Source: Escherichia phage vB_EcoM-G3F7
Sequence record: MZ234035.1
Length of the DNA stretch: 64,000 nucleotides
Reading direction: 5' to 3' (one strand)
The notes below the pieces were generated by a model. That model ran no database searches. It was not told the origin of the DNA and saw only the letters and a list, made by a program, of their open reading frames with translations. Position numbers and translations under genes: made by a program. Below are positions 2,017 to 57,165 of this stretch, piece after piece; the first letter of the stretch is position 1, and each line of letters starts with the position of its first letter.

Positions 2017-2424
2017 ATGAAACAGTTGATAATTAAAAGATTGAATTTATTGATATGTTGTTTATGTATAGCAATTGCATATGGTTATTACGCAATTAAT
2101 GATTATATGCATTATAAAGATTATGATGTTACTGTAGTTAATACCATTACAGGAACACAAGGAAAAGGGTCTAGTTTATCGTTTATTGCCGTATATGAAC
2201 TCAAAGATGGTTATAGATTTAGTGAATATATTTCCCCAGAGATGTATTCATCAATAGAAAAAGGTGATAATATTACTGTAAGTTTACGTCCTTTCGACGT
2301 AAAACAGACATTGTTTGATAATATTGTTTGGTTCTTTGGAATGGTATTAGTTCAATCTGTGTGTGGTGCTTATATAGTCTGTTCCATCTTATTCTGTATA
2401 TTTAGTAAAATTGAAATTGAGTGA
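2017..2424 (+). CDS. hypothetical membrane protein
   Basis: 135-aa ORF with hydrophobic Cys-rich segments at both ends. Confidence 0.5.
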   Translation: MKQLIIKRLNLLICCLCIAIAYGYYAINDYMHYKDYDVTVVNTITGTQGKGSSLSFIAVYELKDGYRFSEYISPEMYSSIEKGDNITVSLRPFDVKQTLFDNIVWFFGMVLVQSVCGAYIVCSILFCIFSKIEIE

Positions 2425-2431
2425 GGAAAAT

Positions 2432-3319
2432 ATGTCAGTAGTAATTAATAATGTCAATGCAGTAATTAAATCTTTAGTTAATAAAAAATTAAATGAATGG
2501 ACTGTACTTCGTCGTGGAGAGCCAGATAAATTTTTTCATAGATTTAACCCAACTTTGGATTTGAATGTTATTGACAGAGATGTTCATGCTGAAATTTTAG
2601 ATAAATTTAAAGTTGATATTGGGTTTGGGTTAGATAAACATTTGCAACGAACAAACGGATCTGGAATGGGTTTATCTAATCGCATCATGAAAGCCCTTAA
2701 TAAAATTGGAGCGTTGTCTCGTATTAATGCGAGTGAAATCCTTCGCAATTATAATAAAGGATATGACCTTTATGGTCGACTAATGCCGAAATTATCATTT
2801 GACCAAATGATTGCGGATTTGTGGGAAAATCAACGACGATTATTAGCATTAGGCGCTCGATTAGCTAAAGGTCTAGATAAACAAATGATTTTTAAGACCA
2901 ATAATACAGAAGACCTTAAATGCTTTAAATTTAGTACTCGTGGAGATGATTATTACATCAGAGCTCGCTCTACAGATTATGTTAATATGGGGCATCATCT
3001 CTGTTTAGCTTTTGAAGTTTTAAAAGAAGCCGGAACATTAGAATATGTGTCTGGTGCTAAATGTCCGATTGGTTCAAATTGCATTTTAATTTATCGCCCA
3101 GATGAATCCAGTTCAACTAAATTACCTACAAAACCTGTACCAGTTCGCAGTAATGAAAAACATTCTGAACAAATTGCTTATTTTAATAAGCAGATTGAAG
3201 AGCTAAATATTTCTATTCAGCAATATGATGATGAAATTTTCAGACTATCTGGATTGAGTAGTAAAGCTAAATCTGAGCGTGAAAAATTAATTAAAATCGT
3301 TGATTTACTTAAATCTTAA
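2432..3319 (+). CDS. hypothetical protein with C-terminal coiled coil (paralog A)
   Basis: ATG at 2432 after GAGGA RBS; C-terminal heptad-rich tail. Confidence 0.55.
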   Translation: MSVVINNVNAVIKSLVNKKLNEWTVLRRGEPDKFFHRFNPTLDLNVIDRDVHAEILDKFKVDIGFGLDKHLQRTNGSGMGLSNRIMKALNKIGALSRINASEILRNYNKGYDLYGRLMPKLSFDQMIADLWENQRRLLALGARLAKGLDKQMIFKTNNTEDLKCFKFSTRGDDYYIRARSTDYVNMGHHLCLAFEVLKEAGTLEYVSGAKCPIGSNCILIYRPDESSSTKLPTKPVPVRSNEKHSEQIAYFNKQIEELNISIQQYDDEIFRLSGLSSKAKSEREKLIKIVDLLKS

Positions 3320-4413: not shown

Positions 4414-5415
4414 ATGACTCGTAACGAATATATCAAATCATTCAATAGCGTTATTGATGATAAAGCTATACCGATGTTTGGCCAAAATAGCGTTCTTTCT
4501 ATTATCAATCAATGGCTCAATAGTGTTGATGCAAGTATTGTTTCTTCTACTAAATTTATTCATGAAATTCGTAAAATTTCTAGCCGTGTAGATAAAGATG
4601 TTATCAAGAAAACCTTTAAAGAGTCTCGTCTTCTTTCATATTTGGTTAATCGGGATATTCTTGGTAATTTTGGGAAAGAAATTAAACGAACTAAAGATGT
4701 AGTAGGATACAATTGGTTCGGTGATGTTAATTCTTATCATCTTAATATTAAAGAAGACCCTGAGAATATTTTTACTCGTCGTTGGATCAGTAATTTCAGA
4801 CTTTTTAAGAAACAAATTCTAAAATCAGCTTCTAAATTATGTTATGGCGATTATCGTCAAATTCATCCTTTGGCTTCTGATATGATTATCATAAAAGAAT
4901 ATGAACTTGATAAAAATAAAGTATCTATTTTTGTGAATTATGGATTTTTTACACCAGAAACTAACCAAAAGAATATTAATAAATTTTTCTCAATTGCTAG
5001 CACTATAACTCGTCAATTAGAGACCGCATTACTTTGTATGGAAACAGTAGAAAATATTCATACATATCCTTTTAAGAATATATGCGGTTGGGAAGGATAT
5101 AAACTCGTAATTAGCCTTCGTGAAGTGAAATGTGCTTATTCACCTACTGATAAAGAAATTTACCAACAAAAATGTGATGAAATTGTGAATACTCCTAAAG
5201 AAGAAACTACCCTTGAGGAACTAATGGAATGTCTTGATGATTCACCTGAACCGATAGAAATTCGTCCAGAAGTTATTGCACTAGAAAAAGCTTATAAAGA
5301 AGTTCTAGAAATTTCTAATAAAGCGCAGAAAGAATATGAGCAGGCTAAAAGGATTTGGGAAGAATCTGTTAATCGTCTTGATCGTCTGGAACAAGCTTTA
5401 CAGTTAATTAAGTAA
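4414..5415 (+). CDS. hypothetical protein with C-terminal coiled coil (paralog C)
   Basis: ATG at 4414 after GAGGAG RBS; shares FKKQILKSASKL core with paralog B; heptad tail. Confidence 0.6.
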   Translation: MTRNEYIKSFNSVIDDKAIPMFGQNSVLSIINQWLNSVDASIVSSTKFIHEIRKISSRVDKDVIKKTFKESRLLSYLVNRDILGNFGKEIKRTKDVVGYNWFGDVNSYHLNIKEDPENIFTRRWISNFRLFKKQILKSASKLCYGDYRQIHPLASDMIIIKEYELDKNKVSIFVNYGFFTPETNQKNINKFFSIASTITRQLETALLCMETVENIHTYPFKNICGWEGYKLVISLREVKCAYSPTDKEIYQQKCDEIVNTPKEETTLEELMECLDDSPEPIEIRPEVIALEKAYKEVLEISNKAQKEYEQAKRIWEESVNRLDRLEQALQLIK

Positions 5416-5467
5416 TTTAAAGCCAAGGATGGCTCGGAGTATAAATCATTAACCAAGTGAGAAGAAC

Positions 5468-6394
5468 ATGAAAACTCGTAAACATTATATTGATTATTTT
5501 GACAGTCTTATTACTAAACATCGTAATTATCAGATAGGACACAGAGCAGTAATCAATAATATTCTTCGTGATTTTTTAGACTATATTGGATGGGAAAACC
5601 ATATTTGTAAAGATACACAAAATGCGTATTCACATTCTCTTGGTTCTTTGCTCGAGTGGTTCAAACGTTCCCGATTACTATCTTCTGTGATAGCTGTTAA
5701 TAATGTTAAAAAATTTATGTATCCAAGCTACATTGAGACTAATGTATCAAATGCTAGTGTTGTTACATTTAATATTATTAACGACGTGAAAAGAACTTAT
5801 TTAGAAGAATGGTTTTCTAAAGATAGTAAAGAAAAATTTGCTAGTGAATTTTCACACGAATTCAATAATAACGTGAATATGCTTTTTAAGCATTCTCGTA
5901 GACTGTTTTGTCATGGTGATAACCGTACTATTAATGTGAATGTAAAAGACTGGGTTACGGCTAAATTCACTCCATCGTCCCAGAATGGGCAATTTGAATT
6001 GTCAATTATCATTTGTGCTCCGCACGAGATATATAAAAACCTTCCGTATATGAAACCACGCGAAGCTAATAAACACAATGAAACTATTAGTTCTTTGGCT
6101 TATAATTTACGCGTGTTATTATCTGATATGGATGTAGTCAAATCCTTTGATGATAATACGAATTATGGTCTTTCGCTGTTTGAAACTAAATTTGTTATTA
6201 AATTAAAGGACCCTAGTGAATTTAAACCTACACCAAAATCCAATCATGGAAATGATACTATGAAAGAAGAACGCGAATATCTCAGTGCCCGTTTGATTGA
6301 AGTTGAAAAACAGATTGAAGAGCATACTAAAGTTCTTAAGGCTTTAACCGCCAAAGCAAATGGTTTACGTAATGCTATTGAGGTATTGAAATGA
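5468..6394 (+). CDS. hypothetical protein with C-terminal coiled coil (paralog D)
   Basis: 308-aa ORF; heptad tail ...[31 protein letters not shown]. Confidence 0.6.
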   Translation: MKTRKHYIDYFDSLITKHRNYQIGHRAVINNILRDFLDYIGWENHICKDTQNAYSHSLGSLLEWFKRSRLLSSVIAVNNVKKFMYPSYIETNVSNASVVTFNIINDVKRTYLEEWFSKDSKEKFASEFSHEFNNNVNMLFKHSRRLFCHGDNRTINVNVKDWVTAKFTPSSQNGQFELSIIICAPHEIYKNLPYMKPREANKHNETISSLAYNLRVLLSDMDVVKSFDDNTNYGLSLFETKFVIKLKDPSEFKPTPKSNHGNDTMKEEREYLSARLIEVEKQIEEHTKVLKALTAKANGLRNAIEVLK

Positions 6395-34183: not shown

Positions 34184-35212
34184 ATGTCATCAATACCTTG
34201 GATTGATAATGAGTTTGCATACCGTGCATTAGCTCATTTACCTAAATTCACACAAGTAAATAATAGTTCAACTTTTAAATTACGGTTTAGATGCCCAGTT
34301 TGTGGAGATTCAAAAACCGACCAGAATAAAGCCCGTGGATGGTATTATGGTGATAATAATGAAGGAAATATTCATTGTTATAACTGTAACTATCATGCAC
34401 CAATCGGAATATATTTAAAGGAGTTTGAACCTGATTTATATCGTGAGTATATCTTTGAAATAAGAAAAGAAAAAGGTAAAAGTCGTCCAGTAGAAAAACC
34501 TAAAGAACTTCCTAAACAACCTGAGAAGAAAATAATTAAATCTCTTCCGTCATGTGTTAGATTAGATAAACTGGCGGAAGACCATCCAATTATAAAATAT
34601 GTAAAAGCTCGTTGTATTCCAAAGGATAAATGGAAATATCTTTGGTTTACAACCGAATGGCCTAAATTAGTTAATAGCATAGCACCGGGAACATATAAAA
34701 AGGAAATTTCTGAGCCTCGTCTTGTTATTCCAATTTATAATGCTAATGGAAAAGCTGAGTCTTTTCAAGGACGCGCATTAAAGAAAGATGCTCCTCAAAA
34801 ATATATCACCATCAAAGCTTATCCTGAAGCAACAAAAATTTATGGAGTCGAACGAGTTAAAGATGGTGATGTATATGTTCTAGAAGGACCTATAGATTCA
34901 CTTTTTATTGAAAATGGTATAGCTATTACGGGTGGTCAATTAGACCTAGAAGTTGTTCCATTTAAAGATAGACGAGTGTGGGTTTTAGATAATGAACCTC
35001 GTCACCCTGACACTATTAAACGAATGACTAAATTAGTTGATGCAGGAGAAAGGGTTATGTTTTGGGATAAATCTCCCTGGAAATCAAAAGATGTTAATGA
35101 TATGATTAGAAAGGAAGGTGCAACCACTGAACAAATTATGGAATATATGAAAAATAATATTGCCCAGGGGTTAATGGCTAAAATGCGGCTATCTAAATAT
35201 GCTAAGATTTAA
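34184..35212 (+). CDS. 61: DNA primase gp61
   Basis: 342 aa; N-terminal zinc ribbon CPVCGD...CYNC; Toprim-like region. Confidence 0.9.
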   Translation: MSSIPWIDNEFAYRALAHLPKFTQVNNSSTFKLRFRCPVCGDSKTDQNKARGWYYGDNNEGNIHCYNCNYHAPIGIYLKEFEPDLYREYIFEIRKEKGKSRPVEKPKELPKQPEKKIIKSLPSCVRLDKLAEDHPIIKYVKARCIPKDKWKYLWFTTEWPKLVNSIAPGTYKKEISEPRLVIPIYNANGKAESFQGRALKKDAPQKYITIKAYPEATKIYGVERVKDGDVYVLEGPIDSLFIENGIAITGGQLDLEVVPFKDRRVWVLDNEPRHPDTIKRMTKLVDAGERVMFWDKSPWKSKDVNDMIRKEGATTEQIMEYMKNNIAQGLMAKMRLSKYAKI

Positions 35213-35409
35213 ATTAACCCAACTAAAGCAAATGCTAAATCTACGAATGTATCAAGAGTAACTACTGGAATACTAACGCCATGAGCAATAGCAACTGGCG
35301 ATAAAACAAAATTCCAAAGTAAAATTCCTATCATAGCAGTAATAGTAAAAGCTATACGTTTCTTATTACCTTTTATGGCATTAACAAGTGCCATTAATTT
35401 TTGTACCAT
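35209..35409 (-). CDS. small hydrophobic membrane protein, antisense to flanking genes
   Basis: 66-aa ORF; AAGGAGGA RBS 3 nt before ATG; two hydrophobic helices. Confidence 0.45.
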   Translation of the reverse strand: MVQKLMALVNAIKGNKKRIAFTITAMIGILLWNFVLSPVAIAHGVSIPVVTLDTFVDLAFALVGLI

Positions 35410-35422
35410 ATGTCCTCCTTAT

Positions 35423-35446
35423 TGCTTTATATATTTATTGTATAAT
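35423..35446 (+). promoter_or_regulatory. MotA-box middle promoter upstream of gene 56
   Basis: TTGCTTTA box, 11-nt spacer, TATAAT. Confidence 0.55.
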
Positions 35447-35482
35447 TAATCTACTAACCCATGAATTGAAAGGAAAAATAAC

Positions 35483-35998
35483 ATGCCACATTTCAACGAA
35501 TGTAGTCAACTGATCGAAGGCGCTGATAAAGCTCAAAATGAATATTGGGATATTCTCGGTGATGAAAAAGACCCGCTGCAGGTAATGCTTGATATGCAGA
35601 AATCTTTACAGATTCGTTTAGCAAATGACCGCGAATACTGTTATCATCCAGATAAATTAGAAACTGCCGGTGATGTTGTTTCTTGGATGCGTGAACAAAA
35701 AGACTGTATTGATGATGAATTCCGCGAACTTCTGACTTCTCTTGGTGAAATGTCACGTGGTGAAAAAGATGCATCGGCAGTTTGGAAAAAATGGAAAGCA
35801 CGTTATATTGAAGCGCAAGAAAAACGCATTGATGAAATGTCCCCAGAAGATCAGCTCGAAATTAAATTTGAGCTTGTGGATATATTTCATTTCGTATTAA
35901 ATATGTTTGCTGGCCTTGGAATGAATGCGGAAGAAATCTTTAAACTTTATTATTTGAAAAATAAACATAATTTTGAACGTCAAGATAATGGGTATTAA
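35483..35998 (+). CDS. 56: dCTP pyrophosphatase gp56 (MazG-like)
   Basis: 171 aa; matches T4 gp56 length; MotA-box promoter upstream. Confidence 0.85.
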   Translation: MPHFNECSQLIEGADKAQNEYWDILGDEKDPLQVMLDMQKSLQIRLANDREYCYHPDKLETAGDVVSWMREQKDCIDDEFRELLTSLGEMSRGEKDASAVWKKWKARYIEAQEKRIDEMSPEDQLEIKFELVDIFHFVLNMFAGLGMNAEEIFKLYYLKNKHNFERQDNGY

Positions 35999-36662
35999 AC
36001 AAAAATTTTATAGAACATATATCGTAAAAGTTAGGACGCCGAAAGGCGTCTTTTGGTACGCTGGGAAACATGAATCATTTATTGTAAATCCATATGATGA
36101 TAAATATCCGGGGTCAGGCAAAATACTATGGAACATATATCGTAAGTATGGTTTTAATTATAAAATACGTTGGTCAAAATGCCATGGTTCTAGAGAAAAA
36201 TCATATGAAGTTGAACGCGAGCTAATATCTGCATTAAAACGTAAACACCCAGATACTTGCATTAATATTTCTCCTGGTGGTCAGGGTGGAGAAGGAAGAA
36301 AATGGACTGAGCAACAACGATTAGAACATAAACTTAGATTAAACAATCCTGAAACAAAAACTCGGATGAAGAATTCACAACGTATAGCCCAAAATAGAGC
36401 AGAACGAAAAGCTCGGCAATCTGAAGTAATGAAAAAGTTTTATTCGAATGGCGGAAATAAAAAGATTTCAGAAGGAACTTCAAGGGCGCAAAGAAAAGCG
36501 CCGCATTGGCATGAACCGCTTAAAAGCGAAATACATGAGTTATGGGTTTCTTTAGGTAAACCAGCAACAGGCCCGGTTGTAAAGGCGCTTAAAGGAAAAT
36601 ATGATGTAACAAGTTCAGCTCTTAAGAATTTAATTTACTTATTCAGAAAAGAAGATGTATAA
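35988..36662 (+). CDS. segF: GIY-YIG homing endonuclease SegF
   Basis: 224 aa from ATG 35988; GIY-YIG-like N-terminus; between 56 and soc as in T4. Confidence 0.8.
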   Translation: MGIKQKFYRTYIVKVRTPKGVFWYAGKHESFIVNPYDDKYPGSGKILWNIYRKYGFNYKIRWSKCHGSREKSYEVERELISALKRKHPDTCINISPGGQGGEGRKWTEQQRLEHKLRLNNPETKTRMKNSQRIAQNRAERKARQSEVMKKFYSNGGNKKISEGTSRAQRKAPHWHEPLKSEIHELWVSLGKPATGPVVKALKGKYDVTSSALKNLIYLFRKEDV

Positions 36663-36665
36663 ATA
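36658..36665 (+). promoter_or_regulatory. late promoter motif for soc
   Basis: Exact TATAAATA about 30 nt upstream of soc ATG, overlapping segF stop. Confidence 0.55.
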
Positions 36666-36695
36666 ATCATGTAATTTAAATAAAAGGAGAATTAC

Positions 36696-36941
36696 ATGGC
36701 TAGTACTCGCGGTTATGTTAATATTAAAACATTTGAGCAGAAATTAGATGGAAATAAGAAAATTGAAGGAAAGGAAATTTCTGTAGCTTTCCCTCTTTAT
36801 TCTGACGTTCACAAAATTTCTGGTGCTCATTACCAGACGTTCCCTTCAGAAAAAGCAGCATATACTACTGTATATGAAGAAAATCAGCGTACTGAATGGA
36901 TTGCTGCAAACGAAGATTTGTGGAAAGTAACTGGTGGTTAA
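36696..36941 (+). CDS. soc: small outer capsid protein Soc
   Basis: 81 aa; matches T4 Soc; late promoter TATAAATA at 36658-36665. Confidence 0.85.
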   Translation: MASTRGYVNIKTFEQKLDGNKKIEGKEISVAFPLYSDVHKISGAHYQTFPSEKAAYTTVYEENQRTEWIAANEDLWKVTGG

Positions 36942-36947
36942 TAATTC

Positions 36948-36975
36948 AAGGACTCCTTCGGGAGTCCTTTTTTCA
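36948..36975 (+). terminator. intrinsic terminator after soc
   Basis: AAGGACTCC-TTCG-GGAGTCCTT followed by TTTTTC. Confidence 0.75.
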
Positions 36976-36983
36976 TTTAAATG

Positions 36984-37013
36984 GTTTACTTTCCAAAATG
37001 AGTATGGTATAAT
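36984..37013 (+). promoter_or_regulatory. T4-type early promoter
   Basis: GTTTAC, 18-nt spacer, TATAAT. Confidence 0.55.
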
Positions 37014-37039
37014 AGAATTATCTTATAGAGGAGAGCGCT

Positions 37040-37246
37040 ATGTTAAATCGTTGGATTAAACCGAATGAAGATTTAGATATTATCATTTCACGACACGTAA
37101 TGAAGAAATATGAATTGCAACCATGGTCTACAGAAGTTGTTGTGCATTCATTTATGATGTACGCAGATGGTTCTGTTGAATTTAATGCAGAGATTCGATA
37201 CGATTATGGCGAGAAGCAAGTTGAATTCAAAAGAGGCTTTTTGTAA
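37040..37246 (+). CDS. hypothetical protein
   Basis: 68-aa ORF downstream of early promoter 36984-37013. Confidence 0.45.
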   Translation: MLNRWIKPNEDLDIIISRHVMKKYELQPWSTEVVVHSFMMYADGSVEFNAEIRYDYGEKQVEFKRGFL

Positions 37247-37587
37247 TGTTTATCTTTAATTGGTTTAAAAATTTCTTTACGGATTTTTTCTCTACAGTTC
37301 CTGGGGAAGGTGTAGTTCCTATTTCAAATGACGACCTTCCTTTAACTGTAGTTGAGTATGTTTATATGGGAGATGGAACAGTAGAAGCAGTCACTATGAC
37401 TTATGAAGAAGCCCAAGAATATTATAAAAATCCTTGGCGCTGGTCAGTACCTACTACATCATCTAATGCACAGAATACACAGTCTAGTTCTGATTCATAT
37501 GATACTAATGTTCCTGTTCATGTATGGACGGGCGATTCATGTGGAAGTTCTTGTGATTCTAGTTGTTCATCTACATCTTGTGATTGA
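37246..37587 (+). CDS. hypothetical protein with Cys/Ser-rich C-terminus
   Basis: 113-aa ORF ending [17 protein letters not shown]. Confidence 0.45.
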
Positions 37588-46939: not shown

Positions 46940-47311
46940 ATGTTTAAAATCGGTAAGAAATATCGCATTCGCGAAGGTGAAGAAAAGAAATATCTATTTT
47001 CTGCTATTTATAGGAATGGTTCTATTAATGCTGTAATATCTACAAGCGAATTTATCGTTGAAGATATGAAAGGTAATAATGTTACAATGATTAGTACAGC
47101 ATCTGGAAATGACGGAAAAATTCTTCACAGTTTTCAGAGTAATGTTCTAATTTATGATGAAGAATTTGACTTCTTCGAAGAAGTTCCCGAAGGTTTTGCT
47201 TTTGAATGCACTATCACTATGAAATCTGGTGACCCTCTTTCTTTTACAGTTAAAGATGAAGGAAGTCGCTTGAGAATTATTAGTCTTCTTCAAGCCATTA
47301 AATTTAAGTGA
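46940..47311 (+). CDS. hypothetical protein
   Basis: 123-aa ORF. Confidence 0.45.
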   Translation: MFKIGKKYRIREGEEKKYLFSAIYRNGSINAVISTSEFIVEDMKGNNVTMISTASGNDGKILHSFQSNVLIYDEEFDFFEEVPEGFAFECTITMKSGDPLSFTVKDEGSRLRIISLLQAIKFK

Positions 47312-55533: not shown

Positions 55534-55540
55534 GGAAAAT

Positions 55541-55699
55541 ATAAATATTGCAAAATTATTAGGAGTTATTTCATTTATTTGTTGGATAGTAGCATGTGTT
55601 TTAACTATCTGTATTGATGTCAGCAGTGTGTTTTCGCAAGCTTTAGCTCAGGGTATGTGTGCATATTTAACATTTGTGTTGTTATCTACTAATGATTAA
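55541..55699 (+). CDS. ac: small hydrophobic protein, Ac-like by position, non-AUG start
   Basis: About 50 hydrophobic codons open from ATA/ATT after GAGGA; no in-frame ATG near start. Confidence 0.3.
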   Translation: MNIAKLLGVISFICWIVACVLTICIDVSSVFSQALAQGMCAYLTFVLLSTND

Positions 55700-55836: not shown

Positions 55837-57165
55837 ATGCAACTGAATAATCGTGATTTAAAAAGTATCATTGATAATGAAGCATTGGCTTATGCTATGT
55901 ACACGGTTGAAAATCGTGCCATTCCAAATATGATTGACGGATTTAAGCCAGTTCAACGATTTGTTATTGCTCGAGCTCTTGATTTGGCACGAGGAAATAA
56001 AGATAAGTTTCACAAACTCGCTTCTATCGCAGGCGGTGTAGCGGACCTTGGATATCATCATGGTGAAAACTCTGCGCAAGACGCAGGTGCTTTGATGGCT
56101 AACACTTGGAATAATAACTTTCCTCTGTTAGACGGTCAAGGAAACTTTGGTTCTCGTACTGTCCAAAAGGCAGCAGCAAGTCGTTATATTTTTGCTCGTG
56201 TAAGTAAAAATTTCTATAACGTATATAAAGATACTGAATATGCTCCAGTACATCAAGATAAAGAACACATTCCGCCTGCTTTCTATTTGCCTATTATTCC
56301 TACTGTTCTTCTTAATGGCGTTTCCGGTATTGCAACTGGTTATGCAACTTACATTCTTCCTCATAGTGTTTCTTCTGTCAAGAAAGCTGTACTGCAAGCT
56401 CTTCAAGGAAAGAAAGTAACTAAACCGAAGGTAGAATTCCCAGAATTTCGTGGTGAAGTCGTTGAAATTGATGGGCAATATGAAATTCGTGGAACATATA
56501 AGTTTACTTCACGAACTCAAATGCATATCACTGAGATTCCATATAAGTATGATCGTGAAACTTATGTGAGTAAAATCTTAGACCCGCTTGAAGATAAAGG
56601 CTTCATTACATGGGATGATGCTTGTGGTGAGCATGGCTTTGGCTTCAAAGTTAAATTCCGAAAAGAATACTCTTTGAGCGATAATGAAGAAGAACGCCAT
56701 GCAAAAATTATGAAAGACTTCGGGTTGATTGAGCGTCGTTCCCAGAATATTACCGTCATTAATGAGAAAGGAAAGCTGCAAGTTTACGATAATGTAGTTG
56801 ATTTAATCAAAGACTTCGTTGAAGTTCGTAAAACTTATGTCCAAAAACGAATTGATAACAAAATCAAAGAAACTGAATCAGCATTTCGTTTAGCTTTTGC
56901 CAAGGCACATTTCATTAAGAAAGTAATTTCAGGTGAAATTGTTGTACAAGGTAAAACTCGCAAAGAACTGACCGAAGAACTTTCTAAAATTGATATGTAT
57001 TCTTCTTATGTTGATAAACTAGTTGGAATGAACATTTTTCATATGACTTCCGACGAAGCAAAGAAACTTGCTGAAGAAGCTAAAGCCAAAAAAGAAGAAA
57101 ACGAATATTGGAAAACTACTGATGTAGTTACAGAATACACCAAAGATTTAGAGGAAATCAAATGA
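55837..57165 (+). CDS. 52: topoisomerase II medium subunit gp52 (GyrA-like)
   Basis: 442 aa; matches T4 gp52 length and sequence as recalled. Confidence 0.9.
   Translation: MQLNNRDLKSIIDNEALAYAMYTVENRAIPNMIDGFKPVQRFVIARALDLARGNKDKFHKLASIAGGVADLGYHHGENSAQDAGALMANTWNNNFPLLDGQGNFGSRTVQKAAASRYIFARVSKNFYNVYKDTEYAPVHQDKEHIPPAFYLPIIPTVLLNGVSGIATGYATYILPHSVSSVKKAVLQALQGKKVTKPKVEFPEFRGEVVEIDGQYEIRGTYKFTSRTQMHITEIPYKYDRETYVSKILDPLEDKGFITWDDACGEHGFGFKVKFRKEYSLSDNEEERHAKIMKDFGLIERRSQNITVINEKGKLQVYDNVVDLIKDFVEVRKTYVQKRIDNKIKETESAFRLAFAKAHFIKKVISGEIVVQGKTRKELTEELSKIDMYSSYVDKLVGMNIFHMTSDEAKKLAEEAKAKKEENEYWKTTDVVTEYTKDLEEIK

Follow-up and report, generated by a model that had tools for sequence, protein, structure and literature searches.

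The window (the whole 64,000-nt stretch of DNA that was analysed) contains gene 56, segF and soc in succession on the same strand. The features that delimit this locus are the following:

35483..35998, + strand: gene 56 (dCTPase/dUTPase), 171 aa, identified as an open reading frame (ORF), by a Pfam dUTPase_2 match and by annotation
35988..36662, + strand: segF, 224 aa, gene for a free-standing Seg-type (GIY-YIG-related) homing endonuclease
35988..35998, + strand: overlap between gene 56 and segF, ATGGGTATTAA, 11 nt, by direct reading
35999..36657, + strand: inserted DNA proper, 659 nt, from the comparison with segF-less relatives
36658..36665, + strand: T4-type late promoter of soc, TATAAATA, containing the segF TAA
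36696..36941, + strand: soc, late gene for the small outer capsid protein (81 aa), identified by Pfam Soc (E 1.1e-54) and by annotation

Gene layout and resemblance to phage T4

The segF ORF is made up of 675 nt (224 codons plus the stop). Its ATG (35988-35990) and first codons lie within the final four codons of gene 56 (N-G-Y-stop), whose stop codon can be read directly as the TAA at 35996-35998, and the offset between the two genes (505 mod 3 = 1) puts them in different frames. At the other end, the segF stop codon is the TAA at 36660-36662, inside TATAAATA and 30 nt 5' of soc, the ATG of which begins at 36696. The sequence-only reading had described a 224-codon ORF starting at 35988, 11 nt inside the end of gene 56 and in another frame, and had placed its stop within TATAAATA upstream of soc; both statements are exact to the base. 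The record MZ234038.1 (Escherichia phage vB_EcoM-G3F10) is 100% identical to the window at the same coordinates, and the gene 56, segF and soc CDSs in its annotation agree with those read here. The overlaps at this locus are real, but they have already been described for phage T4, as has everything else in the sequence-only reading.

The overlap between gene 56 and segF, in the form (A/G)TGGNTAYTAA, was found in T4 and in six diverged segF orthologs, and all segF lineages have a start codon at the equivalent position, either ATG or GTG. The segF-less T2-type alleles have CGA-GGT at this position and hence no start codon. The likeness to T4 covers the 56/segF/soc locus, the 224-aa length of the protein and the 11-nt overlap with gene 56, and extends to the stop inside TATAAATA, a hairpin internal to segF and the soc leader. 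The window also differs from T4: it has one extra A at 36682, in the loop of the soc hairpin, its backbone belongs to the species Tequatrovirus gee4498, its gene 56 is chimeric, and both dam (located between genes 61 and 56 in T4) and gene 61.2 are absent at these sites.

The SegF protein and its relation to the GIY-YIG endonucleases

T4 SegF, the product of a gene formerly called 69, was reportedly treated by Belle, Landthaler and Shub in 2002 (cited in PMC2988022 and PMC2330249). The alignment with T4 segF, suggested in the sequence-only reading, identifies the ORF as segF, given its 99% identity, its equivalent locus and the same 11-nt overlap. The alignment is gap-free, with 222 of the 224 residues identical, and the only amino-acid changes are G2D and D37N. 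At the nucleotide level, the 659-nt insert shows 13 differences from T4, and the comparison of the two segF genes gives 12 synonymous and 2 non-synonymous changes (dN/dS 0.04). The protein also matches PHROG 314 (homing endonuclease) with an E-value of 2e-23.

The GIY-YIG label attached to the ORF is supported via intermediate relatives and is recovered neither by Pfam nor by solved structures. No Pfam family (PF01541 and PF19835 included) is matched by SegF at E <= 0.1, NCBIfam yields no GIY-YIG match for the protein or its family, and sequence or profile comparisons of both with the PDB were equally negative. The AlphaFold model of the whole protein is poor (pLDDT 66) and its Foldseek matches are meaningless. 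The model of the N-terminal part (pLDDT 87, pTM 0.77) shows a strand-strand-helix-strand-helix order; Foldseek retrieved no solved structure for it at E < 0.3, and it matches 51 predicted viral structures (E <= 1e-3, TM mostly 0.6-0.8) that include proteins named Seg-like or GIY-YIG endonucleases.

The intermediate relatives link SegF to better recognized sequences. In the search of a SegF profile against 1.8 billion proteins, P0147, P0161, P0123 and P0157 appear at E about 1e-7. These four proteins match the whole domain of I-TevI (E 4e-7 to 3e-4) and also PF01541, P0147 and P0157 above the cut-off and P0161 and P0123 below it. Among 80 SegF relatives, PF01541 is matched by 4 and PF19835 by 7. 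The tyrosine of the first motif is Y11 (in R-T-Y-I), which is invariant in both the 80- and the 87-sequence alignments and is aligned with the GIY tyrosine of the Pfam-positive relatives and of I-TevI (Y6). The second motif, Y24-A-G26, is likewise invariant and corresponds to Y17 and G19 of I-TevI, and the invariant E76 and N93 are aligned to its E75 and N90, weakly by hhalign and through the intermediates by MAFFT. When the SegF family is compared by hhalign with I-TevI alone, the match is weak (E 0.018, probability 2.5%). As judged from these alignments, the membership of SegF in the GIY-YIG family is only transitive, through its intermediate relatives.

The catalytic domain of I-TevI (PDB 1MK0, 1LN0), the archetype of the GIY-YIG homing endonucleases, provides a point of comparison. 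It resembles SegF in its two tyrosine motifs, its glutamate (E75=E76), its asparagine (N90=N93) and its KHG/KYG helix, and the strand-strand-helix-strand-helix order is also that of the SegF model. Nevertheless, the similarity between both proteins is not directly detectable, and the helix alpha-1 segment that carries Arg27 in I-TevI has no counterpart in SegF as aligned: no SegF arginine aligns to R27, the stretch FEKRWKRHF lies opposite a gap at SegF 27-41, and the SegF model has a loop instead of helix alpha-1 there. The two enzymes also differ in their genetic context, since I-TevI is intron-encoded and SegF is free-standing, with a cleavage site that does not adjoin its insertion site. 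The sites of free-standing enzymes lie hundreds of bases or more away, versus about 25 for those of intron-encoded ones (PMC2988022).

Several of these observations could suggest a homing endonuclease gene that has lost its activity and is decaying: SegF has no Pfam GIY-YIG match, no canonical arginine can be aligned in it, and solved GIY-YIG structures are not matched by its models. Yet the ORF has its full length and its product shares 99% identity with a T4 enzyme that is biochemically active, and dN/dS ranges from 0.04 in the comparison with T4 to 0.09-0.28 in those with six orthologs (52-82% identity), which points to purifying selection. Y11, Y24, G26, E76 and N93 are invariant among 87 SegF relatives. 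Moreover, the arginine is likewise missing from the aligned sequences of P0147 and P0157, although both are above the Pfam GIY-YIG cut-off; as the gap is common to Pfam-positive relatives, it is a trait of the clade and not a sign of decay. A decayed gene lacking catalytic residues was the outcome that the sequence-only reading had raised against itself, and the intact ORF and its invariant motif residues make this explanation highly improbable. The reading that we favor, with a probability of about 0.92, is that segF is here a functional T4-type copy located in the slot between the gene 56 stop and the soc late promoter. From its 99% identity to T4 SegF, which is listed as an active enzyme targeting gene 56 (PMC2988022), the SegF of this phage would be active.

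One way to account for the lack of an alignable arginine would be that the SegF clade is a distinct Seg-type branch of the GIY-YIG family that lost helix alpha-1 together with the canonical residue, another basic residue having taken its place. This idea is tentative and rather unlikely, and the choice of a substitute is speculative: it might be R9, in the clade-specific R-T-Y of strand 1, or K27/H28 after YxG. If true, the loss of the helix and the arginine would explain why SegF is invisible to Pfam and to searches of solved structures, and an enzyme with known activity would turn out to have shifted one of its active-site residues.

The insertion site and the mosaic structure of gene 56

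In the segF-less phages G4498, U115 and RB51, 30 nt of spacer separate the gene 56 stop from TATAAATAATCATGTAATTTAAATAAAAGGAGAATTACATGGC, which is identical to positions 36658-36700 of the window. The BLAST homology to G4498 picks up again exactly at 36658. The comparison of the 56-soc junction in endonuclease-free relatives, proposed as a check in the sequence-only reading, thus shows that the insert replaces the 30-nt spacer exactly. The start and stop codons of segF both lie outside the inserted DNA (35999-36657); since this DNA replaces the spacer between the gene 56 stop and the soc promoter, the start codon comes from gene 56 DNA and the stop codon from the promoter. The claim of an insertion with minimal disruption is borne out by the pre-existing soc promoter and leader, which are identical in G4498, U115 and RB51. 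Both neighbours, gene 56 and soc, retain their coding sequence and signals.

The position of the segF stop is less constant than that of its start. Four of the seven segF ortholog lineages end inside TATAAATA, one reads through it, one stops 29 nt before it and one has another ORF in between. An ORF that runs into TATAAATA terminates there in one frame of three. Given these mixed positions and the one-in-three odds, the stop inside the promoter looks like a by-product, not a requirement. The idea that the mobile cassette includes the T4-type C-terminus of gp56 was considered and rejected, as the segF-bearing Dhakavirus and Gaprivervirus have a T2-type gp56 C-terminus; in these phages, CGT-GG, which contains a GTG start, is found in place of CGA-GG.

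The presence of segF is polymorphic at this fixed site between conserved genes, and only a minority of T4-like records are positive: of 737 records, 45 match the 1.6-kb query with a coverage of 80% or more, and a SegF with 60% identity or higher is encoded in about 60 records. Other fillers occupy the 56-soc slot in ZCEC15 and HMD-9, and at least four unrelated fillers were found across phages. In HMD-9, gene 56 is of the T4 type and even has the ATG, yet segF is absent. Gene 56 alleles of this type are thus not confined to segF-bearing phages, which makes the direction of gain or loss ambiguous for some events.

Gene 56 itself is a mosaic, in which two further features can be delimited:

35604..35606, no strand: recombination breakpoint within gene 56, from the alignment against G4498 and T4
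35707..35747, + strand: longest block, within the converted part of gene 56, over which T4-type and T2-type alleles are identical, 41 nt

Positions 35483-35604 show 0 differences from G4498, the segF-free type phage of the window's own species, versus 19 from T4, and positions 35605-35998 show 113 differences from G4498 versus 16 from T4. The flanks are 97% identical to G4498, and the T4-type tract of gene 56 is contiguous with segF. Beyond 36658, the informative sites alternate between G4498-like and T4-like, so that the right boundary of the tract cannot be placed. The mosaic looks like a footprint of co-conversion during homing. In that scenario, SegF would have cleaved gene 56 of a segF-less genome, and the repair would have copied the 3' part of the donor gene 56 along with segF (intronless homing with co-conversion). 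Such behavior is known from T4, whose SegF cleaves T2 gene 56 site-specifically (PMC2988022, PMC2330249) and excludes it via gene conversion (PMC2330249). The cleavage site of SegF lies in 31 bp over which T4 and T2 are identical (PMC13565253), and the 41-nt block at 35707-35747 is only a candidate for the region that SegF recognizes or cleaves.

Alternatively, segF could be ancestral and the segF-less phages its deletion derivatives, in which case the mosaic of gene 56 would result from ordinary recombination between lineages and not from homing. Orthologs from several Tevenvirinae genera share the left junction and are saturated at synonymous sites, which does indicate that the arrangement is old, and HMD-9, with its T4-type gene 56 end and ATG, could represent a loss. 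Nevertheless, the gene is carried by a minority of phages, and the window differs from G4498 precisely by segF and the adjoining T4-type tract of gene 56 between flanks that are 97% identical. Gene 56 conversion dependent on SegF has been shown experimentally in T4 x T2 crosses (PMC2330249, PMC2988022), and the variety of unrelated slot fillers fits repeated replacement. An ancestral segF with ordinary recombination therefore seems improbable, and the homing footprint is the preferred explanation of the mosaic.

The arrangement resembles that of other free-standing endonuclease genes of T4. Like segF in T4, a cassette that lacks a promoter, overlaps its upstream gene by 11 bp and has a terminator inside its 5' end (PMC2988022), segC, segG, mobA, mobC and mobE are promoter-less cassettes in intergenic slots: their start codons overlap the upstream gene, the promoters of the downstream genes are at or inside the endonuclease ORF, and cleavage takes place in a conserved neighbour gene, far from the insertion (PMC2988022). 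An internal terminator is also shared by mobE (PMC2988022). For segG, segA, segE, mobB and mobC, the promoters of the downstream genes are within the endonuclease coding region (PMC2988022); contrary to them, the promoter that follows segF here is pre-existing host DNA that merely supplies a stop codon.

At this locus, in textbook fashion, a selfish endonuclease gene has settled in the phage genome and left its neighbours intact, and the window repeats the T4 case. The finding is already known: this is an ordinary T4-type segF, and the known picture of the gene is unchanged. What is added is the definition of the insert at the base level, without a start or stop codon of its own, a natural pair from the same species (G3F10 with segF, G4498 without) with a sharp, apparent co-conversion breakpoint in gene 56, and the maintenance across genera of the 11-nt overlap, the putative terminator hairpin and the soc hairpin, both hairpins with compensatory changes. 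The G3F10/G4498 pair could serve for measuring homing tracts.

Signals for the expression of segF and soc

Four additional features concern expression:

35422..35446, + strand: middle-promoter-like site, with a MotA-box-like TTGCTTTA (35422-35429) and TATAAT (35441-35446), by direct reading
36033..36054, + strand: GC-rich hairpin AGGACGCC-GAAA-GGCGUCUU followed by UU, in segF codons 16-23
36667..36699, + strand: soc leader hairpin, 11 bp, with 36667-36677 paired to 36689-36699
36948..36975, + strand: intrinsic-terminator-like site after soc, with a 9-bp stem, a UUCG loop and a T run

The middle-promoter-like site is at a position equivalent to that of P(M)16.53, annotated in the T4 record X01416, and by this analogy it is presumed to be the source of a 56-segF transcript. 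segF presumably has no promoter of its own, and no Shine-Dalgarno sequence is visible; as in T4, its transcription would be driven by the middle promoter of gene 56, and low-level translation could come from ribosomes that end gene 56 and re-initiate 8 nt upstream. The output may be further limited by the putative terminator hairpin, which is conserved and lies 45 nt from the segF start. This hairpin has a predicted folding energy of -15.8 kcal/mol (z -2.25) and is kept in all seven ortholog lineages with compensatory changes, the phage Cronus having a wholly different stem. A terminator scanner reported it in the minus-strand reading only; on the + strand there are 4 U rather than 5. In T4, the terminator t15.94 is found at the counterpart position (X01416 annotation; review PMC2988022), and by analogy the hairpin presumably attenuates transcription into segF. 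Another hairpin that could hide the segF start (35960-35996, -7.7 kcal/mol, z -2.6) is only partly kept in the orthologs and was treated as unproven.

The start of segF within gene 56 also bears on an older interpretation, according to which a programmed frameshift in the overlap joins both ORFs into a 46-kDa protein, the historical 'gp69'. Old T4 records do annotate a 392-aa gene 69 protein across the two ORFs, and a +1 slip on AAU-GGG-U is conceivable in the window. However, the 1984 T4 sequence is shorter than the current record across the match (1532 vs 1534 nt), and the fusion is therefore attributed to a frame error in sequencing. The codon on which the slip would occur varies, being GGA in T4 and GGC in other orthologs, and the conservation of a start codon in all lineages argues for independent initiation. 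The probability of a frameshifted fusion is close to nil.

Regarding soc, TATAAATA is depleted in the 64 kb, where 3 copies were counted on both strands versus 10.1 +/- 3.5 expected, and the chance of finding it in a given 40-nt window before soc is about 0.003, a rough estimate from the expected density. It is located 27-34 nt 5' of the soc ATG in 13 of 13 related phages examined, and the T4 record X01416 (1984) annotates the late promoter P(L)15.32 over the segF stop. The presence of TATAAATA before soc is no chance match. It stands where the -10 element of a T4 late promoter would be expected; transcription from such promoters depends on gp55, gp33 and gp45 and begins a few bases further 3'.

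The leader between this promoter and soc folds into a hairpin (-8.5 kcal/mol, z -4.48; 1 of 200 shuffled sequences folds equally well) in which the soc AUG (36696-36698) is sequestered and the Shine-Dalgarno sequence AAGGAG (36684-36689) is mostly in the loop. Covariation in this hairpin was observed in 12 of 13 related phages; the Rfam search of 35200-37300 gave only sub-threshold chance matches. From the usual T4 spacing, we assume that the late transcript starts at about 36671, some 6 nt past TATAAATA, a position that falls within the 5' arm of the hairpin. The soc AUG is paired in the modelled read-through RNA and free in the modelled late RNA of the window. According to these models, read-through transcripts would be unable to translate soc because its AUG is paired in the hairpin, and late transcripts, which would lack the 5' arm, would leave soc translatable. 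The soc leader is a known inhibitory structure in T4 (PMC3014915). Start-site hairpins of the same type have been described for T4 e, soc, 49 and I-TevI, in which the AUG is sequestered in transcripts coming from upstream and a late promoter that fires inside the hairpin frees it (PMC3014915); the hairpin of the window does not differ from them in kind, as the locus is the soc example itself.

Gene layout and its precedent in T4

Escherichia phage vB_EcoM-G3F10 (MZ234038.1), which is T4-like and belongs to the species Tequatrovirus gee4498, matches the region 35400-37000 with 100% identity at equal coordinates. The following features were read from the sequence:

35483..35998, plus strand, gene 56 (dCTPase/dUTPase), TAA at 35996-35998
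35988 (ATG) to 36660-36662 (TAA), plus strand, segF ORF of 224 codons in a frame different from that of gene 56
36658-36665, plus strand, late promoter TATAAATA
36696, plus strand, start of soc (small outer capsid protein)

The segF ATG is set within the final codons of gene 56 (…GAT AAT GGG TAT TAA). The sequence-only reading had proposed an out-of-frame 224-codon ORF that overlaps the end of gene 56 by 11 nt and stops within the TATAAATA upstream of soc, and all its coordinates and both overlaps are exact. Since this motif is rarer than expected in the window (3 copies versus 10.1 +/- 3.5) and each of the 13 related phages examined has a copy 27-34 nt upstream of its soc ATG, the copy before soc is no chance match. 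Its depletion suggests that the motif is avoided where late transcription is unwanted. The two other exact copies in the 64 kb (10 expected) are located at 47005-47012 (minus strand, antisense within the plus-strand ORF 46940..47311) and at 55540-55547 (plus strand, about 290 nt upstream of a 442-aa ORF, 55837..57165).

The alignment with T4 SegF recovers 222 of 224 identical residues, and the T4 reference genome has the same 11-nt 56/segF overlap followed by soc. The T4 record X01416 (1984) annotates a late promoter, P(L)15.32, that covers the stop of gene 69* (the segF ORF) and places the terminator t15.94 about 25 nt (some 8 codons) inside it. SegF is listed as an active GIY-YIG enzyme targeting gene 56 by Edgell et al. 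(PMC2988022), where segF is described as a promoter-less cassette with an 11-bp overlap, termed a "hybrid" endonuclease, with an intrinsic terminator within the 5' end of its coding region and a translation, probably at low frequency, by ribosomes that finished the upstream gene immediately before. According to the summary in PMC2330249, SegF excludes the T2 gene 56 via gene conversion when T4 and T2 are crossed. The record of the present phage already annotates segF as a homing endonuclease. Because the T4 records and both publications already describe this feature, the window's arrangement is a rediscovery of the known T4 layout in a close T4 relative. The original observation is confirmed and its interpretation supported; the comparative additions are incremental, namely the exact insert borders, a co-conversion breakpoint of natural origin, and the conservation of overlap and hairpins.

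Insert borders and a probable homing footprint in gene 56

U115, RB51 and G4498, the type phage of the species to which the window belongs, have no segF. In these phages, the gene 56 stop is followed by a 30-nt spacer, CAGCTCGTCTTAAAAGCCGCGAGAATTTAT, and then by TATAAATAATCATGTAATTTAAATAAAAGGAGAATTACATGGC, which is identical to window 36658-36700. The homology between the window and G4498 picks up again exactly at 36658 (BLAST) which, together with the spacer, delimits the inserted DNA to 35999-36657 (659 nt). These endonuclease-free junctions, with promoter and soc leader intact, agree with the suggested insertion with minimal disruption: segF fits the slot and neither neighbour is altered. 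Judged from these alignments, host DNA already contained the late promoter and soc leader before segF was inserted, and the segF stop is simply the TAA already contained in the soc late promoter.

HMD-9 has a T4-type gene 56 end with the ATG, yet no segF; its spacer is different and its soc divergent. In this stretch of HMD-9 (2384-3240 of its record, L009), gene 56 is 96.7% identical to that of the window, segF start codon included, and a 104-nt intergenic region precedes the divergent soc allele. Either HMD-9 lost segF or it arose by recombination at the stop codon of gene 56. In ZCEC15 the 56-soc slot is filled by two small ORFs, and phage T2 presumably carries a similar pair. As the fillers differ among phages, the interval from the gene 56 stop to the soc promoter accepts alternative fillers. 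Directly upstream of gene 56, G4498 has a 216-aa ORF (5185-5835 of its record, L004) that matches NUMOD3 and weakly HNH. It probably encodes a homing endonuclease of the HNH type and is absent from the window (junction 35468-35474). In Klebsiella phage Mexia, gene 56 is preceded by an annotated HNH endonuclease and followed by segF, so gene 56 is flanked by two different endonuclease slots. Compared to T4, the window also lacks dam between genes 61 and 56 (35209-35482 region) and gene 61.2 (34005/34006). Gene 61 is followed by a minus-strand 66-aa ORF (35209..35409) that resembles RB32ORF030w and is a "putative membrane protein" in other records.

The window and G4498 are about 97% identical on both flanks and only 78.8% identical in gene 56, which a site-by-site comparison resolves into a clean mosaic, first G4498-like and then T4-type:

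35483-35604, plus strand, gene 56 segment with 0 differences from G4498 and 19 from T4
35605-35998, plus strand, gene 56 segment with 113 differences from G4498 and 16 from T4

The mosaic thus corresponds to a G4498-like genome with a T4-type tract that starts in gene 56 and extends into segF, the pattern expected from double-strand-break repair after SegF had cut gene 56. Past 36658 the informative sites interleave, so that the tract has no definable right end. The SegF cleavage site was reported inside a 31-bp stretch identical in T4 and T2 (PMC13565253); within the converted part of gene 56, T4-type and T2-type alleles share their longest identical block at 35707-35747, which is a candidate only for this region. 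The otherwise 97% identical tract contains a dense patch of five synonymous third-position differences from T4 in five consecutive codons: at 35776, 35779 and 35782 T4 agrees with the segF-less alleles, and at 35770 and 35773 the window does.

SegF was detected by tblastn in 108 phage records, about 60 of which have a copy with at least 60% identity, and nearly all of the best 34 matches listed adjoin an annotated dCTPase or dUTPase gene. Six diverged orthologs (52-82% amino-acid identity) were examined, from Klebsiella phage Mexia, Enterobacter phage MY742, Dhakavirus AnYang, Gaprivervirus VR7, Gaprivervirus P479 and Erwinia phage Cronus. The 11-nt overlap, (A/G)TGGNTAYTAA, is retained in each of them. 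AnYang and P479 have a GTG start arising from CGT-GG, and the segF-less T2-type alleles have CGA-GG at the same position and hence no start codon. Wherever segF is present, so is the left overlap, as it should be if the conversion tract includes it. The right junction varies more than the left: in four lineages (T4 type, MY742, AnYang, Cronus) segF stops within TATAAATA, in Mexia it continues through the promoter to stop 19 nt beyond it, in VR7 it ends 29 nt before the promoter, and in P479 an extra ORF separates the two. Given this variability, the location of the stop inside the promoter looks incidental.

Intactness and GIY-YIG membership of SegF

The possibility of a decayed gene is contradicted by the substitution pattern, 12 synonymous and 2 non-synonymous changes relative to T4 (dN/dS 0.04) and dN/dS of 0.09-0.28 relative to the orthologs; segF is intact. 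The GIY-YIG label gains nothing from direct searches: SegF has no Pfam match at E <= 0.1, sequence and profile searches of PDB retrieved nothing, and both SegF models gave only noise against solved structures (Foldseek). It stands through intermediates, motif residues and predicted structures. The SegF family profile retrieved 1033 relatives; among 80 scanned, 4 match Pfam GIY-YIG, 7 SegE_GIY-YIG and 17 NUMOD3. Intermediates such as P0147 match the SegF profile (E ~1e-7 in 1.8 billion proteins) and also the I-TevI catalytic domain over its full length (E 4e-7; query sequence confirmed against 1MK0/1LN0), and both P0147 and P0157, another relative, exceed the Pfam GIY-YIG cut-off. In the joint alignment, SegF carries Y11, Y24-x-G26, E76 and N93 at the motif positions, without variation across 87 sequences. 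Strands and helices follow the order strand-strand-helix-strand-helix in the N-terminal model (pLDDT 87), which resembles structures predicted for phage endonucleases of the Seg-like and GIY-YIG kinds (TM mostly 0.6-0.8). From these alignments and models, the link between SegF and GIY-YIG is indirect but coherent. Neither alignment nor model shows an equivalent in SegF of the I-TevI stretch that contributes helix alpha-1 and the catalytic Arg. Since in the alignment this gap is common to the Pfam-positive intermediates, it would be a clade trait and no sign of decay; T4 SegF is experimentally active (PMC2988022).

The top structural match is BFVD entry P04523, an old UniProt "DNA replication protein" of 392 aa that corresponds to the historical gp69, 56 and segF fused (X01416 1521-2699), a fusion that we attribute to a frame error in the 1984 sequence.

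Probable expression signals and RNA hairpins

Three further elements may contribute to expression:

35422-35446, plus strand, MotA-box-like TTGCTTTA and TATAAT upstream of gene 56, where T4 has its middle promoter P(M)16.53
36033-36054, plus strand, hairpin AGGACGCC-GAAA-GGCGUCUU followed by UU, segF codons 16-23, fold -15.8 kcal/mol
36667-36677 paired with 36689-36699, plus strand, 11-bp soc leader hairpin, z -4.5, soc AUG paired

The putative expression scheme for segF and soc agrees with the T4 literature. No Shine-Dalgarno sequence was seen upstream of the segF ATG on reading the sequence, and initiation probably requires ribosomes that terminate on gene 56, whose stop lies 8 nt downstream. 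The internal segF hairpin is present in 7 of 7 lineages with compensatory changes (GGACGCC/GGCGUCU becomes AAACGCC/GGCGUUU in VR7 and P479), and in Cronus these codons form an unrelated stem capped by a UUCG loop. These changes and the replacement stem argue for selection on RNA structure in the segF 5' end, consistent with the terminator described in T4.

Late transcripts would start about 6 nt past TATAAATA and lack the 5' arm of the soc leader hairpin, leaving the soc AUG free in the predicted fold. This stem covaries in 12 of 13 phages (UCAUGUAAU/AUUACAUGG, CACCUGUAAU/AUUAUGGGUG and CGCUCGUAAU/AUUAUGGGCG), and soc is among the T4 genes with such inhibitory structures (PMC3014915). Downstream, the soc stop, the terminator hairpin of soc (36948-36969) and a sigma-70-like promoter (36985-37013) all overlap the annotated ORF G3F10_072 (36934-37059; 41 aa, GTG start), which is probably not a real gene.
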